A DNA stretch of 38,217 bases, from the IMG/VR virus record IMGVR_UViG_2547132077_000001, positions 1 through 38,217 of that record; one strand, 5' to 3'. Origin of the DNA: a virus. Lineage: Duplodnaviria > Heunggongvirae > Uroviricota > Caudoviricetes. Of this stretch, positions 291 to 26,458 are shown piece after piece; the first letter of the stretch is position 1; each line of letters starts with the position of its first letter. The position numbers and the translations under genes are program-made. The notes beneath the pieces were generated by a model. The model searched no databases. It saw only the letters and a program-made list of their open reading frames with translations, and was not told the DNA's origin.

Positions 291-1302
291 ATGAGCGAGC
301 GAAATAATTCATTTGATATAATTAGACATATCGCCGCCTACATGGTTTTATTTTCTCATCACTTCAGGTTATCTGGTGATCATGAGCCTTGTTTTTCTTC
401 AATGGGATAGTTATGGTGCGGTCGCAGTTGCAATTTTCTTTTGTTTATCTGGTTTCTTAATGCCAAAAAGTTTTAATTCATCTGGTTCGTTTATCGAGTT
501 CATGAGGAAAAGGTGTCTGCGTATATTTCCTGCATTATTTGTATGCTCTGTTGTTATGTATTTATTTGTCGCAGTAGAATTTAACTCCAATAATAGTTAC
601 GCATATTTATTTTCTTCCCAGCCATACTTAAATATCATAAGAAATACTGTTTTCCTGCAGAGTTATGTGGATGGAGTGTTTTCTGATTACTTTTACCCTC
701 ATGTTATTAATGGAAGCCTTTGGACGCTGCCTATAGAATTTTCATGCTATCTAATAATTGGCCTTGCGCTCTCTATATCGTTCACATGGGTCGGGCCTGC
801 TTTATTATTAGTTACATGCATACTTTCCACAATAATTTTCAACTTCTATCCTGAAAATTACACATATTTTAGTGTGCCTTTTAAATCATTATCATTATTT
901 GGCATGCCATTCTTTTTTGGTGCTTTATTGTCAATGACTACTGAGTCATGGTTGAAGTATAAAAAGCAAGTGTTAATTACTGCCTTATTGTTGCTTATTG
1001 CCGTGACTGGTAAGCCGGAAATACAAATTGTAGCGCCACTATGTTTGTCGGTTATAGTTATTGTTCTTGGCCTAACCATTAAAGACAGGGTTATAAACGG
1101 AAGGATTGATATATCTTATGGTTTGTATATATACGCATTCCCAGTACAACAGATTATTATAAATAATATAACTAATAAATTCATCCCATCCATAGCTCTT
1201 AGTCTTTTTGCAACTACATTACTGGCGACTGTTTCTTATTATTATATCGAAAAGCCGTTCTTAAGAAGAAAGAGAAAAGAAATTATAGTAGCTGAAGGTT
1301 AG
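291..1302 (+). pseudogene. oac: Acyltransferase-3 family membrane protein (O-antigen acetyltransferase-like), split by a frameshift: N-terminus in frame 291..410, remainder in frame 376..1302
   Basis: ATG at 291 preceded by AGGAG (281-285) encodes MSERNNSFDIIRHIAAYMVLFSHHF, a typical acyltransferase-3 N-terminus, then hits a stop at 408-410. The 308-aa track ORF in the +1 frame carries the rest of the polytopic membrane protein (AVAVAIFFCLSGFL motif) but has only a GTG start. The switch maps near a T5 run at 391-395. The symbol is inferred from position next to the tailspike. Confidence 0.55.
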
Positions 1303-1799: not shown

Positions 1800-3860
1800 C
1801 TATGGGGTTATATAATCATAATCCGACTTCATCCTTTCAGTTTCAGCGTAGCTAAAAGTATTAGCCGCTCCGCACAGGCCAAAGCGACCTCTGTTCATGC
1901 GATGCCCTGTGACAAAAATATTAGTAGAGTATGGTGTTGTGGCTCCGATCTCTACAACTATACATGATTTAGTATTTTCAACCCCTGAAACTCCAACCGT
2001 AAAGGTCATTTCCTTCCACGAGCCTCCACCTACTAATGTTTTTGAAAGTAGTGTAGTTCTTGCTCCATTGTCATTTGCTACATATATGTGCACTAAAAAT
2101 GTTAGTTCAACATCAGCGTTAAACAAAGCCTGGACTGTCACTGCCTCACCATTCACCAAGTCGGCTCGTGGATGTTCGAATATAATCGATGTCGTTGCAC
2201 CAGCATCACTAAGAACAGATGCAATATAACGACTCATTCTCAATGCATTGTTTGGAATCCCTGCACCACTCCTAGTAAACACTGTATTAGATGTTGATCT
2301 TGCAAACCATCCAGGAGCCACAGCAGTTGATGAGTTGGGAGGAATACTTACTGTGCTGTTCTCTATATAAATAATGTCACCATTCAGAGCTGGTATATTT
2401 GCATTGTATTTATCAATAACAGAAACATGGTTAGATGTTAACGGAAGAAGCGGCATATTTTCAGCGACAATCCTTCCGGCAACAATCTTTTGATATGGCA
2501 AATCGTTAATTGATATTATTGGCTGAATAAAACCTGACCCTGGAATATTTGAAATAAATACCTTGTCAACCTCCAAATAGTTCATTATCACATCATCATT
2601 CCCAGCAACAATTATTCTGTTTGAGTTTATGCCATGTAAATTAGCATAAACATCATTTATAGTGATGTCAGTCAGTATCTGCTGCGATGTCGTTTCTGAA
2701 TCGCCAATTTGTACGACTTGTTGGTGTCCAAATGCCATCTCGCAATAAAGTCCATCAACTGAAGAAAACGTTGATGGATATCCAAAAATAACGCATGTTT
2801 TTGCATTCTGTGCGGAGTTGTCTTTTATTCTCGTTGCGACAGCAGATGTATATGACATAATGCCAGTACCGACAGCGCTACCACCCTGCCATGCACATCT
2901 ATTAAATGCAATAAAAAGCCTACTATTTCCTGAATATCTATCTGTTGTGTTACCGCCATCATCAATTGCCTTGACAAAATTATTGGCGTGATCGTTATAT
3001 TCCATGTATGTATTATTTATAATATGTGGCCACCAATTTTGTGCTTTAAAATTAACTACCCACTCGTTGCTATCTTCAGGATTGATAACACGACATTTCT
3101 CTACTGTTGCCATATGAGATGTCCACGGCTCAAATTCAACAAGCTTTGCCGTGCCACCATCCATCATTACATTTCTAATTTCATAGCTGTCTTGAGAAAA
3201 AAATGCTGATCGCTGATCTATACCATCCATGCCCATAGAAAATATTGGTCCAATGTCACTATTTATTGGATCGCATACAAACTGAAAATCAACATGCGTT
3301 GGAGTTTTAAACGTATATCTGCCAAGTTGAAAACCATCTTCATGAATCGGGTTCCAGCGCTTATACCCTGAATATCCTTCTGTAGGTGGTGGATTTGGCC
3401 TTTCATCCAAACTTTGGATTAGTTCAAACTCATGTTCCAAGCTTCTTAGCGAATCGCTTACAGTTCCTGCGCCATCTCCAATATATGTCGAACCTTCGTT
3501 CCCTGTCAGTAAAACTTTGAACTGATCCGGGTCATACTTCAGCACATTCGGAAAATAAAACTGCTGCGCCCCATACGCATCATAAACAGCCATGGAATGG
3601 CCTTGCACAGTTACGAACTTGGCAATCTGTCCGTTATATACCGGATATCCGGCAGCGTTAATGATGATTGGTTGCGATACAGGAACATGAGAGCCGTCTT
3701 CGTTCTCCACATAAACCTGAATCTGGTTTTCAGGGTTTACCGGGTCAGTGTCAATTTTACCGATATAAATTTTGCCATTGGCTACGGCTTTAAAAGAACG
3801 AGCCATAGTGAAGAGTTGCGAAGGCATCGATACGATCACATTGGCTGTAATGTCTGTCAT
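1800..3860 (-). CDS. Tailspike protein: P22/Sf6-type N-terminal head-binding domain fused to a divergent receptor-binding domain
   Basis: First ~115 aa ([46 protein letters not shown]...VLKYDPDQ) match the conserved head-binding domain of P22-like tailspikes as I recall them. The remaining ~570 aa I do not recognise. Position at the end of the virion block next to ant is as in P22. Confidence 0.9.
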
Positions 3861-3960: not shown

Positions 3961-4839
3961 TCAGTAGTTATGTACTGAAGGAGGCAATTCTTTATTCTTA
4001 AGTCTCATCCATGCGGAAAGATTCGTTGGTCCGTCTGGCTCATTAATATCAACATCTCGTGTGTGGTTTATTAAAACGTCTCTCGCCATTCCGATAACAT
4101 ACGAGAATTCATGACCGTAGTCGTAGCATCTGCCGGAATAGTTCGATTGAATTTGTTTTAGCGCCGGATACAGTTCGCGGAATAATGCCTGTGAGCGGTT
4201 GGCATAATCCCATAACCATACAAGGCTGTTTGCTTCTTTTGCAGAAAGCTCGTTGGTTTTCTTCTCTTGTTTACCAATGAACTCACCTTCAAGCACTACC
4301 CTGTGGATGTACTCTACGGCCAGCGGGATTTGTTCAATTGAAAGTTCATCAATGCTGTCAATACCAAAACGCTGATGAACCATATTGTATGCATCGTCAT
4401 AGCGAAGTCCTTTCTTTCCTACCAGCATGTTTACTGCATCGCGTAGCGGTGTTCTTTCCTCAACAGTGGTTTTCTTTCCTTTTACATACTCGCCATGTTT
4501 GCGAATTGAAGGCAGAACTTCTGCTGTTACCCACTTGCGGAATTTGTGCGGGACTGAACCTTTATTGACTGCATCGCGGCAGCGCAGAACCAATGTATAC
4601 ATACCTGATTCGCTCACAATGCTTAGATTCTGCTCACCACCAAGGGTGTAACTTAAAGTTACTCCCTTTTCATCGTCATCAAGTGCAGTAAGCGCCTTGC
4701 GTGAGTTAGTCAAATCTAAAGCATCACAAACATCTTTAGCTACAAACCACGGCTCACCGCACTTGTTGATGACGCGGATTTCACTGTCGCCGAATTTGAA
4801 GATGGTGAAATCGTTTTGTGCCTTTGCTATACTTTTCAT
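3961..4839 (-). CDS. ant: Antirepressor Ant (BRO-N/KilA-N type N-terminal domain)
   Basis: 292 aa, N-terminal [16 protein letters not shown] motif typical of phage antirepressors; sits immediately downstream of arc as in the P22 immI region. Confidence 0.85.
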
Positions 4840-4907
4840 GTCAATATTTCCTAATCCGATTTGTTGATGCCGAAGCCCTGACTGTTACAGCAGTTGGGGC
4901 TTCAACT

Positions 4908-17861: not shown

Positions 17862-19274
17862 TTACCAACCGGAGGATGAGGGAACGTATATTTCTGTTTC
17901 TTCGCGGACCAATGCCGGGCAATGCATACACATCATCAGCGCATCAGCCAGGTTAGGAGATGGAATACCGAGCTTCTGCTTCATTTCGACCTTAGTCATA
18001 AGCTCCAGCTTCCCGTTATTATTGAATTTGCGCTGAATCTGCGTCAGTTCTGCAAACAGCTTCTCCAGCATCTTCTCGCCTATCGCTTCTTTGTCGAAAC
18101 TCAGCATGTCGTCGGGGTCTGCATACTCACCGTAGACAACCGCCCGATATGTCAGATACAGCCTGTCAGCCAGCGCGTAATAGAATTGCGCTCGCTTATT
18201 GCGGAACACATCACCAATAGTGCGAACGTTGTCTCCCTGTACGACTTCATCAGCCCATGCTCCGGCCTGATATGGTGCATCTTCATCAAATGGCGATTCG
18301 CTGCCCTTGAACATCGTGGCGGTGATTTTCTTACCGGAGAATGCTTCCGTTGTCTGTCTGCGTAGCCCTGCCCCGACACCATCACCATCCCACAAGTAGT
18401 GGTCAGCGCCGTCTTCAATCGCCAGCGAAGTTGCCCAGTCAGCACCCTCGTTGATGTCCATCAGCAGACCTTCGGCAATGCGCTTAACTACCGAACCGTG
18501 ACGCGATGCATAACCTTTAGCATCTGGCCCTGTATCTGACGGGTCATGTGCAGAAACAACAGCGCCTTTCGCTTTCCATCCGAGTTTCTTGTGCGCATCG
18601 GTTGCAGCTTCAAGCCATTCACGTTTGATGATTGCCATATCACTTGCGCTTACCGGCTCACCCAGCCAGATGTGACGATACAGTGTCGGATTTCTGCGTT
18701 TGCACTCTTCCATCTCCAGACGGAGAACTTCAGGAAAGTGCGGGTTGTCGGTGTAGTTCACCGTCAGCAGACAAATATCATCAGGAGGATTTACGACGAA
18801 TCGCTGATAGGTATCGTCGAGGATGTTTTTCGGGTTAAAGCTCACCCATATTTCGGAAAACGGCTTGCGGATGGTTGGTATCAGGATATCCCATGATTCC
18901 TTCGTTACCGCTTCCGCTTCTTCAACCCAGCAGATATCAATGCCTTCGAGCGATTTAATCTTCGTCGGGTTGTTTTTTATGCCGTAGAACATGAATTCAG
19001 CATTCGTTCCGAGATGACGAATCATGGAACGCTGAATTTCAAACTCAGCCGAATACCCTTCCCGCTCTATGGTGTCTTCAAGCAACCGGATTACCGAATC
19101 GCTGATACTGTTTTGCAGTTCACGAGCGCAGAGAATACGCACAGGCTGCCGGCGCGCCGCTTCAACAAGCAGCCTCGCTATTGCCCATGATTTACCGCTA
19201 CCTCGACCGCCTTTGGCAACTTTGTAGCGATGCGCCTCAATGAACGGTTCAAAGATAGGATTAATCGAGGTCAT
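17862..19274 (-). CDS. Terminase large subunit
   Basis: 470 aa; Walker A VAKGGRGSGKS near the N-terminus; ATGA overlap with the small subunit gene. Confidence 0.95.
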   Translation of the reverse strand: MTSINPIFEPFIEAHRYKVAKGGRGSGKSWAIARLLVEAARRQPVRILCARELQNSISDSVIRLLEDTIEREGYSAEFEIQRSMIRHLGTNAEFMFYGIKNNPTKIKSLEGIDICWVEEAEAVTKESWDILIPTIRKPFSEIWVSFNPKNILDDTYQRFVVNPPDDICLLTVNYTDNPHFPEVLRLEMEECKRRNPTLYRHIWLGEPVSASDMAIIKREWLEAATDAHKKLGWKAKGAVVSAHDPSDTGPDAKGYASRHGSVVKRIAEGLLMDINEGADWATSLAIEDGADHYLWDGDGVGAGLRRQTTEAFSGKKITATMFKGSESPFDEDAPYQAGAWADEVVQGDNVRTIGDVFRNKRAQFYYALADRLYLTYRAVVYGEYADPDDMLSFDKEAIGEKMLEKLFAELTQIQRKFNNNGKLELMTKVEMKQKLGIPSPNLADALMMCMHCPALVREETEIYVPSSSGW

Positions 19275-19696
19275 TTTACGAATAGAGTGCTCATCGGTGA
19301 TGTTTCAATCTGGATTGCGCCGCCGTCTTTGCCGACAAGCTCGTTAGTTACCTTGTCGCCATACTTACGGGGATTCATTCGGGCCAGCGCCCATTTGCGG
19401 GTATCAACGCGAAGTCTTGCCTTTGCCACCTCAGCAGCATCTGGAATCGCAGTGTCAGCAATTTCGAATATCTCTTCGAAAACAGAATCAGCTCGCGCCT
19501 CAGTTGCCTTCGCGTACTTGTCTCTAAAGTCGTCATGCTCTGACAGCCAGCGAAATACAGTAGCCTTTGCTGGCATGCCGGGGCGCTTGCAAACCTTAAC
19601 CAGACTTTCCCCGGAGGCAAGCAGCGCACAGATATCATCAGCCACCTCCGGCAGGTAATCCGAAGGGCGACCGACATTCTTTTTCTCAGTCGCCAT
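19271..19696 (-). CDS. Terminase small subunit (Sf6 gp1-like)
   Basis: 141 aa; GRPSDY..EVADDIC...GESL.KVCKRPGMP motif matches Sf6-type small terminase as recalled; immediately upstream of TerL. Confidence 0.85.
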   Translation of the reverse strand: MATEKKNVGRPSDYLPEVADDICALLASGESLVKVCKRPGMPAKATVFRWLSEHDDFRDKYAKATEARADSVFEEIFEIADTAIPDAAEVAKARLRVDTRKWALARMNPRKYGDKVTNELVGKDGGAIQIETSPMSTLFVK

Positions 19697-23136: not shown

Positions 23137-23760
23137 CTAACGTGTGACTGCGTTCAAAATGTTGTCTGCGATTGACTCTTCCTTGTGGCATTGCACCACC
23201 AGAGCGTCATACAGCGGCTTAACAGTGCGTGACCAGGTGGGTTGGGTAAGGTTTGGGATTAGCATCGTCACAGCGCGATATGCTGCGCTTGCAGGCATCC
23301 TTGAATAACCGACGCCTTTACATCTTCCGCACTCTTTCTCAACAACTCTCCCCCACTGCTCTGTTTTTGCTATATCAACCGCACGACCTGTACCGTGGCA
23401 ATCTCTGCATCTTGCGCCCGGCGTCGCGGCACTACGGCAATAATCCGCATAAGCGAATGTTGCGAGTACTTGCAGTACCTTTGCCTTAGTATTTCCTTCA
23501 AGCTTTGCAACGCCACGGTATTTCCCCGATACCTTGTGTGCAAATTGCATCAGATAGTTGATAGCCTTTTGTTTGTCGTTCTGGCTGAGTTCATGCTTAC
23601 CGCAGAATGCAGCCATTCCGAATCCGGCTTGTGATTGCGCCATCCCCATAGCAGCCATCACATCAGTACCGGAAAGAGAGTCAGAAGCCGTAGCCCGTGG
23701 TGAGTCGCTCATCATCGGGCTTTTTGGCGAATGAAATTTAGCTACGCTTTCGAGTCTCAT
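23137..23760 (-). CDS. Q: Late antiterminator Q (lambda-type)
   Basis: 207 aa; matches lambda Q as recalled (Cys/His zinc motif CRDCHGTG...CGRCKG); directly upstream of PR'. Confidence 0.9.
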   Translation of the reverse strand: MRLESVAKFHSPKSPMMSDSPRATASDSLSGTDVMAAMGMAQSQAGFGMAAFCGKHELSQNDKQKAINYLMQFAHKVSGKYRGVAKLEGNTKAKVLQVLATFAYADYCRSAATPGARCRDCHGTGRAVDIAKTEQWGRVVEKECGRCKGVGYSRMPASAAYRAVTMLIPNLTQPTWSRTVKPLYDALVVQCHKEESIADNILNAVTR

Positions 23761-23945
23761 GGCCTTCCCCTTTTGCCCTGTTTGACCATCAGGACGCCGT
23801 TAACTATTACGTGACGCTCGCCTTTGCTGTCTCGGTTGTACTTGAGCACTGTTCCTCTTGCGCAGGAAAGCATCCTTGCCACTTCGGTCTGATTGCCTCG
23901 TGTCTGGATAAGAAGCTCTGGTATCGTTTGAATTGTGGCGTTCAT
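23757..23945 (-). CDS. ninH: NinH
   Basis: 62 aa; TIPE...GNQTEVARML.C.RGTV.KY motif matches lambda NinH as recalled. Confidence 0.8.
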   Translation of the reverse strand: MNATIQTIPELLIQTRGNQTEVARMLSCARGTVLKYNRDSKGERHVIVNGVLMVKQGKRGRP

Positions 23946-24304
23946 GCGTTCTCCAGTTCGGTGATTTTTATTCCAAGCCTTCCACCTGGTACTTTCACAC
24001 CACGAATTACGCGAATGTCATCGAATTGCTCGTCGTCTTCCGCAAATCCGGCGTGGATAAGGGAGTCGAGTAAACCTTTCAGGATGTTGTCGAGGTCGCG
24101 GCGGCGGGAGTCCGGAACGTCTGCGATTACTTTGATGCGGAGTCGTGATTTGGTGAAAATGTCTAACTTAAGTTGGCGGATGATTTGCTGAACGTCTTTT
24201 CGGTATTTCTGGCCTTTATCGCTGATGTAGTATTGGCTTCCCCGTCTTCGCCAGTAGGTATTCACCGACGGCGGGTATGGAAGCACAAACTGATATTCGT
24301 TCAT
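23942..24304 (-). CDS. rusA: RusA-type Holliday junction resolvase
   Basis: 120 aa; PPS.N.YWR...DRRRRDLDN...G...D.Q motifs match E. coli RusA as recalled; sits where lambda has ninG. Confidence 0.85.
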   Translation of the reverse strand: MNEYQFVLPYPPSVNTYWRRRGSQYYISDKGQKYRKDVQQIIRQLKLDIFTKSRLRIKVIADVPDSRRRDLDNILKGLLDSLIHAGFAEDDEQFDDIRVIRGVKVPGGRLGIKITELENA

Positions 24305-24579
24305 TGGACAAACACCCTCCCATTGTTAACCAATTTTTTAAGGGTAAGCACAATGGCCCGATCCATTTCAGCCCTTCGCTCTTCCCTGCTCATATCTCTC
24401 CCATTATCAATTCTTGAATGACAATCAACACATAGCGCAGCAGTAAGGCAATCATCTACTTTAATCCCAACCCCCTTCCCTTCATTTCTGTGAGCGGCCT
24501 GAACTCCGTATCTTCCGCAAAGAACGCAAAATTCAATATCCCTGACTGCCTGAAGCCATTTTTTGCTTCTAAACATCAA
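24301..24579 (-). CDS. YbcO-like DUF1364 protein (Cys/His-rich)
   Basis: 92 aa with CVLCG...H and CVDCH motifs; located immediately upstream of rusA, as ybcO is in DLP12-type prophages. Confidence 0.6.
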   Translation of the reverse strand: MMFRSKKWLQAVRDIEFCVLCGRYGVQAAHRNEGKGVGIKVDDCLTAALCVDCHSRIDNGRDMSREERRAEMDRAIVLTLKKLVNNGRVFVQ

Positions 24580-25078
24580 TCCCCTCCAAAAAACGTCGGT
24601 ACGCTGATTTGTTTTTTATGTTGCACACTGTCTGCGCACAAACACCAAATTCTTTGGCTATATCTCTGTATTTGCCTTTTGATTTATATATTGATTTCAC
24701 TTGTTCTGGCGTTAGTTTGCAGAAGTGATGATTAAACCCATGAACAAGCAACCCGGAATCAAATCCATGTTTCGCATTTTCTGTTCGCGTTACCCACTCA
24801 AGATTTTCAACTTTATTATTAAGTTTATTTCCATCCTTGTGATTAACTTCCGGTTTGCCATCTGGGTTATCAATAAATACTTCTGCAACAATTCTGTGAA
24901 CCATTTTATATGATGGTCTTTTCCCGCCACCTGGATACAGACCGACAAATGCATATCCTCCTGGTTTAATGCCATGAGATAATTTTTTTGATTTACGGCA
25001 TGAAATGATGTCTCCATTTTCAGTTACTTTATATATACCCTCAAAGCCGGGGATATCTTTTTCTTTAACATCACTCAT
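24569..25078 (-). CDS. Free-standing HNH homing endonuclease (NUMOD4-like N-terminus plus HNH motif)
   Basis: 169 aa; IPGFEGIYKVTENGDIIS (NUMOD4-like) and VNHKDGNKLNNKVENLEW (HNH); overlaps the stops and starts of both neighbours. Confidence 0.8.
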   Translation of the reverse strand: MSDVKEKDIPGFEGIYKVTENGDIISCRKSKKLSHGIKPGGYAFVGLYPGGGKRPSYKMVHRIVAEVFIDNPDGKPEVNHKDGNKLNNKVENLEWVTRTENAKHGFDSGLLVHGFNHHFCKLTPEQVKSIYKSKGKYRDIAKEFGVCAQTVCNIKNKSAYRRFLEGIDV

Positions 25079-25241
25079 CGTCTTCTTCCTCGTACATTGA
25101 GCTATTCGGATCGCTCATCAGTTCTGCGCAGCAGTGCTCACACACGTGAACTTCCAGCACATGCTGCTTCTGACCGCAGTTAACGCACGTTAAAGCCCGC
25201 TCGACGCTTTGTTGTTCGTAACTTCGATTTGGGTCAATCAC
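25071..25241 (-). CDS. ninF: NinF
   Basis: Not in the ORF track (under 60 aa). My translation from a GTG start (RBS GAGGA) gives ...[45 protein letters not shown], matching lambda NinF as recalled; GTGA overlap with the ninE stop. Confidence 0.75.
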
Positions 25242-25420
25242 CTTGTTTTCCTCGCACGTTCTCTAAGCCACCGGATATCCCACAGGTGAGCCGTGTAATT
25301 GAAGGTTTTTACGTCAGATTCTTTTGGGATTGGCTTGGATTTATTTCTGGAGCGTTTCGTTGGAAGGTATTTGCAGTTTTCGCAGATTATGTCGGTGATA
25401 CTTCGTCGCTGTCGCCTCAT
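25238..25420 (-). CDS. ninE: NinE
   Basis: Internal Met of the track ORF gives [60 protein letters not shown], 60 aa, matching lambda NinE as recalled. Confidence 0.85.
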
Positions 25421-25944
25421 GCCGCCCTCCTGACGCCCTGCCCGATCGCCATCAATGCCGCTTTGGATACGGTAGTAAACATCCGTCGAGGACTGATGAA
25501 CGGTCGCCAAATCAGTAGCATGGAGCCTTTGCTGTTTCCCTTCTTCTCCAGCCCTGTCGATGGTTCGATAAAATTAATCCGTCCATCAGTGATAATGCGA
25601 ACTTCGTCGACACTCTCCAGAGCCTTGCTGAACCATCCGACTGACATATCCTCTGGCACAAGCATAACTACCGTCTGTCGCTGTTGTATGCACTGCTCAG
25701 CGGCTTTTTCCACCCACGGCCTGATATTGCTGTACGGTGGGTTATTCCAGATTGCACCGTGGCTTACCCACTCAGAATTGAGCGCGTCGTCGGCCTCAGT
25801 TAGCCAGTGAGCACACAGAGCATTTTTGTCGCTCGCTGCCGAATCCAGCCAGAATCCAAACTCAATATCCAGTGCATCAAAAAGCCAAAGCGGCGTTTGC
25901 CAGCAGTCCTTGTCGTGTGCTGGCGTATTTGATTTGATAGTCAT
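25417..25944 (-). CDS. Phage Dam-like DNA N6-adenine methyltransferase
   Basis: Start placed at the internal Met ([23 protein letters not shown]...) overlapping the ninB stop; NPPY catalytic motif (WNNPPYS); about 175 aa. Confidence 0.8.
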
Positions 25945-26381
25945 GCAGCCCGATCTCCCCATCGCGCTTTCCACTCCAGAGCCAGTCGCGCTTCGTCTGA
26001 CCACTTAACGCCACGCTCTGTACCGAATGCCTGTATAAGCTCTAATAGCTCCGCAAATTCGCCTACACGCATCCTGCTGGTTGACTGGCCGATTACCACA
26101 AAGCCATTCCCGGCAAGGTTAGGAACAACGTCTTGCTGCTTTAATGCTGCGGTAAACACACACTTCCAGCTTTCTGCATCCAGCCAGCGACCATGCCATT
26201 CAACCTGACGAGAGACGTCACCAAGGCAAGCCCAAAGCTTTCGATTCTGGTCTAAGCTGCGGTTGCGTTCCTGGATGGTCACTACGATTGGTTTGGTTGG
26301 GTCTGGAAGAATTTGCTGTACTGCGTGAATAGCGTTTTGCTGATGTGCTGGAGATCGAATTTCAAAGGTTAGTTTTTTCAT
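25941..26381 (-). CDS. ninB: NinB (Orf family recombination mediator)
   Basis: Internal Met gives MKKLTFEIRSPAHQQNAIHAVQQILPDPTKPIVVTIQERNRSLDQNRKLWA..., matching lambda NinB as recalled. Confidence 0.9.
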   Translation of the reverse strand: MKKLTFEIRSPAHQQNAIHAVQQILPDPTKPIVVTIQERNRSLDQNRKLWACLGDVSRQVEWHGRWLDAESWKCVFTAALKQQDVVPNLAGNGFVVIGQSTSRMRVGEFAELLELIQAFGTERGVKWSDEARLALEWKARWGDRAA

Positions 26382-26458
26382 GACTTCCCTCTCCCCCAAA
26401 TAAAAAGGCCTGCGATTACCAGCAGGCCTGTTATTAGCTCAGTGATGTAGATGGTCAT

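Follow-up and report, generated by a model that had tools for sequence, protein, structure and literature searches.

A probable free-standing HNH homing endonuclease gene and its YbcO-like neighbour in the nin operon of a P22/Sf6-like lambdoid prophage

To our knowledge, free-standing homing endonucleases have been studied almost exclusively in lytic T-even phages. The free-standing mob and seg genes of these phages are read from an upstream operon, lie at the junction of conserved genes and are patchily distributed, and the DNA flanking them is co-converted (PMC2790892, PMC2988022). T4 mobE is promoter-less and nicks a neighbouring gene (PMC2790892; PMC2988022). In the P22-like Salmonella phage epsilon34, gene 31 encodes a putative HNH homing endonuclease that is fused in frame to the N-terminus of a resident gene (PMC2629481). 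[quoted passage not shown]

We analysed a window of 38,217 nucleotides, the whole stretch of IMG/VR virus record IMGVR_UViG_2547132077_000001. A preliminary description of this DNA had placed an HNH homing endonuclease gene between ninF and a YbcO-like gene, and an ORF with Pfam matches to HNH_3 and NUMOD4 was found exactly there, at 24569-25078 on the minus strand. We refer to this gene as HNH and to its downstream neighbour as orf91. Judging from sequence comparisons, HNH is likely to be a free-standing homing endonuclease gene of the I-HmuI type, linked to a co-moving neighbour of the YbcO/DUF1364 class. The genes and junctions of the region are as follows.

25941-26399, minus strand: ninB
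25417-26004, minus strand: dam, longest ORF
25238-25510, minus strand: ninE
25071-25241, minus strand: ninF, the neighbour upstream of HNH (Pfam NinF, E=1e-9)
24569-25078, minus strand: HNH ORF, ATG to TAG, intact, 169 codons encoding 169 aa
25078-25076, minus strand: HNH start codon ATG, 8 nt inside the end of ninF
25071-25078, minus strand: 8-nt overlap of ninF and HNH, ATGAGTGA, with the HNH start codon within the final codons and stop of ninF
24569-24587, minus strand: 3' end of HNH, which includes the orf91 Shine-Dalgarno sequence GGAGGGG (24581-24587) and the orf91 ATG (24574-24576)
24571-24569, minus strand: HNH stop codon TAG, 8 nt inside orf91, whose ATG is at 24576
24301-24576, minus strand: orf91, downstream of HNH, 91 codons with the start taken at the ATG at 24576
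23942-24304, minus strand: rusA, Holliday-junction resolvase, the conserved right flank (Pfam RusA, E=1e-16)
23757-23945, minus strand: ninH
23137-23760, minus strand: Q

The overlaps that had been described, with the stop of ninF and with the start of the next gene, were read directly from the sequence and measure 8 nt each, and lambda indeed has no gene at this position, as it runs directly from ninF to ninG. A separate observation concerns ninB and dam, whose longest ORFs overlap by 64 nt (window 25941-26004). As dam is annotated shorter in phage Dewey (528 bp), the true dam start in the window is probably an internal ATG, which would give the usual 4-nt overlap.

HNH is a free-standing gene in the sense that it forms a separate ORF between ninF and orf91, outside any detected intron, and no Rfam intron family was found in the window. 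The comparison of GC content with the flanking genes, proposed in the preliminary description, gave 0.37 for HNH (0.36-0.40 across the gene) versus about 0.50 for the flanks (0.47-0.53), with 0.44 for orf91. In scans of positions 23800-25600 no promoter or terminator rose above shuffled expectation, so that HNH, having no promoter of its own, is a cassette transcribed from the early-right operon. A reading as a transposon or IS element was dropped, because a repeat search around the gene found terminal or target-site repeats no more than by chance and Pfam found no transposase domain in the ORF.

Based on Pfam analysis, in which the HNH_3 and NUMOD4 scores both exceeded the gathering cut-offs, and on a structural model, the following parts of the protein were located.

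24935-25060, minus strand: NUMOD4, N-terminal beta-sheet DNA-binding region, aa 7-48 (Pfam NUMOD4, E=1e-6)
24773-24907, minus strand: HNH_3 catalytic domain, aa 58-102 (Pfam HNH_3, E=6e-11)
24839-24844, minus strand: codons of N79-H80, verified in the sequence
24776-24778, minus strand: codon of N101, verified in the sequence
24581-24709, minus strand: C-terminal helical/helix-turn-helix DNA-binding region, aa 124-166 (helices 124-166 in the model)

The protein falls into phrog_59 'HNH endonuclease' (E=8e-51), a search of a large protein database returned 1,427 homologs, and its sole solved sequence relative is I-HmuI of phage SPO1 (1U3E; E=9e-19, residues 6-121). Together with the Pfam matches, this means that HNH is not a chance ORF. 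With PADLOC, the protein matched 'homing endonuclease' models only. An AlphaFold model built on 40 homologs reached a pLDDT of 92, and its only significant fold match in the PDB was again I-HmuI 1U3E, over 165/169 columns with a probability of 1.0. The NUMOD4 region aligns with the N-terminus of I-HmuI and is modelled as beta strands (residues 6-59), and the C-terminal region, which gave a weak Pfam match to the CENP-B_N helix-turn-helix, lies within the I-HmuI fold match. As modelled, the protein has the three-part design of I-HmuI, namely an N-terminal beta-sheet, the HNH site and a C-terminal helix-turn-helix. In the 40-sequence alignment, which extends down to 39% identity, N79, H80, N92, N101 and H104 are invariant, and H80 aligns with the catalytic His of I-HmuI, H75. 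The residue before the catalytic His is Asn in the HNH protein versus Asp (Asp74) in I-HmuI, and this Asn is invariant within the subfamily of the HNH protein (40 homologs).

HNH is annotated already in GenBank/RefSeq as 'HNH endonuclease' or 'NUMOD4 motif-containing HNH endonuclease'. Our literature searches found no paper on the gene, and the genome announcement of phages Dewey and Louie does not mention it. It exemplifies a well-known kind of selfish gene and not a new kind, and as a sequence feature it is not surprising.

Far from being universal at this position, HNH was found in 2 of the 425 phage records that match the 1.7-kb region including its flanks. These two are the Escherichia phages Dewey and Louie, HNH-carrying phages that are in culture (PMC12243541). 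Among 5,426 complete E. coli genomes the gene was present in 34, with an identity of at least 98.2%. Relatives with 58-75% protein identity were found in E. coli, Salmonella, Klebsiella aerogenes, Citrobacter koseri, Superficieibacter and Morganella, always followed by a 91-aa orf91 homolog with an overlap of 8-14 nt. The genes upstream of these pairs vary (ninF, roi, unknown small genes, a DNA methylase, DUF1367), and downstream lies either rusA or a Q of the DUF1133 type. The prediction that the 91-aa form of orf91 marks HNH-carrying loci held in Morganella. In Salmonella prophages (L013-L016, 1528-3504) HNH and orf91 stand directly behind a gene for a 658-aa DNA cytosine methylase, with an ATGA overlap; the context, rem-DUF1367 ... 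Q(DUF1133), is unlike that of the window, whereas the junction of HNH and orf91 is alike.

In the preliminary description the tight overlap was regarded as typical of homing-endonuclease insertions, and this part did not hold up. The same slot is occupied by roi in HK97, by gp60, a 70-aa gene, in mEp043 and by gp51, an 89-aa gene, in mEp235, and all three start at the ATG used by HNH, within GATGA(G/A)TGA, and likewise overlap ninF by 8 nt. Because alternative genes of the slot start at the same ATG in the ninF stop region, the tight fit is not diagnostic. All nin genes in the window overlap their neighbours. When the window was aligned with HK97, mEp043 and mEp235, similarity ended at the ninF stop and returned at the rusA ATG, and in the closest phages without HNH the downstream gene was also a different allele, with only ~50% DNA identity. 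Therefore, the foreign block comprises HNH together with orf91 and extends from the ninF stop to the rusA start.

24305-25070, minus strand: foreign block of HNH and orf91, as compared with HK97/mEp043/mEp235-type phages

Thus a free-standing HNH gene is lodged in the nin region as had been proposed, but it is not inserted between two resident genes.

The slot behaves as a general mosaic hotspot in which other cargo begins at the same junction, and the edges of the block of HNH and orf91 fall on gene boundaries. Ordinary lambdoid module exchange would yield the same picture, and the main rival explanation is that nothing more than general or illegitimate recombination where genes meet spreads HNH and orf91, as with roi or other nin-region genes. 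The nuclease would then not drive its own spread but be kept as helpful to the phage, for instance by attacking DNA of competitors or of the host or by promoting recombination in concert with orf91 and RusA. An independent recombinant found in QML220601, L091 and L092 agrees with such an exchange. It carries roi, 29 nt of the 5' end of gp66, the last ~12 nt of ninF, HNH and orf91, and its upstream junction is an illegitimate join of the gp66 5' end with the ninF tail at imperfect microhomology. Selection on the gene can be read in the same direction, though equally in favour of homing, as the HNH protein is under purifying selection. The 22 intact copies of the window lineage contain 16 synonymous versus 5 non-synonymous polymorphisms, and dN/dS values between lineages are 0.03-0.16 in the comparisons that allowed an estimate, dS being saturated and most pairwise values not computable.

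Other observations speak against exchange as mosaic cargo alone. The protein is built throughout like a site-specific homing enzyme, HNH is very rare among the phages that share its flanks, and its exact position relative to orf91 is kept in at least six genera and in diverged lineages. Furthermore, decayed copies of HNH were found beside intact neighbours. An in-frame deletion of aa 55-165 is identical in strain AH19B041 and in the viral contig L082, and strain EA7 carries a truncation, orf91 being intact in each case. In 23 loci with HNH, the block of HNH and orf91 is 99-100% identical, as compared with 95% for ninF and 96.6-98.6% for rusA; the flanks are 95-98% identical or unrelated, and the outer genes are common to only 8-20 of the 23 loci. 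Such a near-clonal block within diverged flanks fits recent spread across backgrounds. We consider it unlikely that mosaic exchange by itself accounts for the locus.

The deletion alleles were located at L008 2769-2948, from an E. coli blood isolate, and at about 1540-1701 of L082, an IMG/VR contig, and end in ...GGGKREGID*. As the same deletion occurs in both, the decayed allele has itself been inherited or has spread. In the prophage of E. coli EJN001 (L168, 19733-20510) the HNH copy is 100% identical and orf91 99.6% identical to the window. Among its structural genes this prophage has a baseplate and a tail sheath-like DUF3383 gene and nothing related to the P22-like module found in the window, which illustrates the exchange of early regions between phage types.

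The preliminary description had also called for a comparison with relatives that lack the insert. The closest HNH-less allele of orf91 was found in the E. coli prophages RM8082, DETEC-S565 and NCTC9104, where it abuts a NinF-family gene that belongs to a different ninF family from that of the window. Compared with this empty allele, the orf91 of the window differs at 7 of its first 15 nt, and from there to the end of the gene (~260 nt) identity is 98.9%. The comparison thus gave a right edge.

24562-24576, minus strand: first five codons of orf91, the right edge of the HNH-linked sequence

On the other side it gave no empty site with both flanks matching, as an HNH-less orf91 directly behind a P22-type ninF was found at none of 150 loci. 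HNH-less alleles begin with M(A/T/R)-I-(Y/F)-R-S-(S/N)-K-W-L and start two codons further upstream, overlapping the tail of the ninF-family gene. In every allele with HNH the Ile codon ATA is replaced by ATG, which is the start of orf91. The GGAGG Shine-Dalgarno sequence of orf91 sits in the conserved C-terminal RFLE codons of HNH, and the arrangement TT(C/T)TGGAGG...ATG is kept in all lineages with HNH.

Under the homing reading that we favour, HNH would be a functional, promoter-less passenger gene in the early-right (nin) operon of a lambdoid prophage of the P22/Sf6 type, and its 3' end would supply the ribosome-binding site and start codon of orf91. During replication beside a related phage without HNH, the enzyme would nick or cut the HNH-less version of the locus. 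A candidate target is the 5' end of the orf91/gp66-class gene, or else the junction of that gene with ninF. Repair by recombination with the HNH-carrying genome would then leave the recipient with HNH and its neighbour orf91. In favour of this reading are the fold and the invariant catalytic residues, the patchy distribution with HNH-carrying alleles scattered in the orf91 tree, the fixed position relative to orf91, the decayed copies, the foreign GC content and the near-clonal block. On the other side stand the Asn before the catalytic His, the largely parallel divergence of HNH and orf91, and the different ninF family beside the three empty alleles. That HNH is a nuclease, where it cuts, and that it homes actively and is not merely recombined are inferences on our part. 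As to the target, an HNH-less orf91 might be cut at the doubly coding junction of ninF and the orf, the insertion itself destroying the site.

It is also conceivable, if rather doubtful, that the enzyme cuts gp66-type genes and brings orf91 along as an uncuttable functional substitute. In that case homing would swap the recipient's gene for HNH and orf91, and the phage would keep the function. Fusions to gp66 in at least four lineages hint in this direction. The HNH genes of L010/L011, L096/L163-165 and L034, and in degenerate form those of L013 and L018, start with MANLRKEARGRECQV, which corresponds to the first 15 codons of the HK97-type gp66 with ~90% DNA identity and is always joined at the same point. 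The 29 nt of gp66 before the cassette in QML220601, L091 and L092 are a further hint, as is the P22-type ninF background, in which none of 150 loci showed orf91 without HNH.

Several other HNH genes were observed close by in related prophages. Strain AH19B041 has a further, different HNH of 170 aa between Q and the holin gene (L008 735-1247), and L011 has a different HNH_3 gene of 182 aa (2496-3044) ~450 bp upstream of the cassette. L165 (3325-4455) encodes a 376-aa protein that consists of HNH_3 and a Q-antiterminator-like domain. HNH genes seem to accumulate in the nin/Q region, which would make it a hotspot for them.

The product of orf91 gave only sub-threshold Pfam matches, to YbcO and DUF968, and shares phrog_131 with HK97 gp66. 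The best fold match of its model was a weak one to E. coli YbcO (3G27), followed by the HNH domains of TagI, Cap5 and McrA; a search of its profile against PDB sequences gave nothing meaningful, so that the fold search alone produced these weak YbcO/HNH matches. Searches of NCBIfam gave no match for the HNH protein, orf91, gp66 or the empty-allele protein. It is fair to describe orf91 as a small Cys4/HNH-fold protein of the YbcO/DUF1364/DUF968 class, and the earlier label 'YbcO-like' is accordingly a fair one. Like YbcO, HK97 gp66/HkbD (DUF1364) and the DUF968/RecA-dependent-nuclease-like proteins, it is predicted to be a small Cys-rich protein with an HNH fold, and like the YbcO/gp66-class genes its gene directly precedes rusA or Q in lambdoid prophages. 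It differs from YbcO and DUF968 in that the Pfam matches are below threshold, and from gp66 in that identity is 29% over 55 residues only.

The HNH-like fold of orf91 raises the alternative of an obligate module of two nucleases, in which HNH and orf91 cooperate, for example by cutting one strand each or by one controlling the other. The invariable adjacency with its 8-14 nt overlap and the position of the orf91 ribosome-binding site and start inside HNH would suit such a module. In addition, HNH and orf91 distances are broadly correlated, so that the two genes largely co-diverge, which is also compatible with a functional pair. The orf91 allele of the window occurs in 37 E. coli genomes and has HNH directly upstream in 34 of them. 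However, the orf91 family is widespread without HNH, which was absent from 55 of 56 orf91-family loci in species-representative genomes and present in one. It was likewise absent from 59 of the 60 non-identical viral contigs listed, with an orf91 75-81% identical, and present in one, in a viral scan that took in 80 of at least 547 loci. At most of the HNH-less loci the orf directly adjoins, or overlaps with, a gene of the NinF family, and HNH-carrying alleles are polyphyletic, branching at five or more separate points of the orf91 tree. The existence of the 98.9%-identical orf91 without HNH, the decay of HNH beside an intact orf91 and the more distant HNH relatives (52-58% identity), which adjoin other YbcO or DUF968/RecA-dependent-nuclease-like genes on either side, argue against the module as well, and we regard it as quite improbable. 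HNH and orf91 travel together and orf91 does not need HNH; the dependence could be one-way, with HNH needing orf91.

Some lambdoid phages require HNH proteins of the HK97 gp74 type, but a role of HNH as such a terminase helper is scarcely credible and was rejected on position and packaging type, as ~5 kb separates HNH, in the early nin operon, from the terminase genes (17862-19696), the P22-type portal and Sf6-type small terminase indicate headful packaging, the protein belongs to the I-HmuI type and has sequence-reading domains, and most close phage relatives are without HNH.

The phage in the window is P22/Sf6-like. Its portal is that of P22, its small terminase is of the Sf6 type, and over 25 kb, 60% matches Sf6 with 97.5% identity. 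A full-length Rfam match to sar RNA (65.6 bits) was found at window 4841-4907 on the plus strand. It adjoins a Bro-N/P22_AR_C antirepressor gene (3961-4839, minus strand), and the window therefore has an immI region of the P22 type. Near one end of the window, a gene of the Acyl_transf_3 family (376-1302, plus strand) stands beside the tailspike gene.

1800-3860: tailspike gene, with P22 head-binding domain

The Acyl_transf_3 gene probably serves lysogenic conversion by encoding an O-antigen acetyltransferase, like its counterpart in Sf6.

The locus offers a tractable system, as the nin region of temperate lambdoid phages is well mapped and cultured carriers, HNH-less alleles and decayed copies are all at hand. 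It raises the question whether homing contributes to the mosaicism of lambdoid phages, how HNH spares its own operon, where orf91 takes its ribosome-binding site and start codon from within HNH, and whether a resistant replacement for the cut gene can travel with the endonuclease that targets it.

Compared with the known systems, the HNH protein shares the three-part architecture of I-HmuI (1U3E) over its full length (169 versus 174 aa), and differs from it by an identity of 29% and by the Asn that takes the place of Asp74 beside the catalytic His. With MobE and the other mob and seg genes HNH has in common that it is promoter-less, stands at a junction of conserved genes and is patchy among relatives, and the near-clonal block of HNH and orf91 would correspond to the co-conversion of flanking DNA seen there. 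It is unlike MobE in its sequence subfamily and in the type of its host phage, and the activity of MobE is known from experiment whereas HNH is known from sequence. Moreover, the neighbour that travels with HNH is a whole, strongly diverged allele, as opposed to the short co-conversion tract of the MobE type. The resemblance to gene 31 of epsilon34 lies in the first 15 codons of a gp66-type gene that several of the present HNH lineages carry; gene 31, in contrast, is located in the early-left operon, is fused to eaE and belongs to a different HNH lineage, related to enzymes of Lactobacillus phages.
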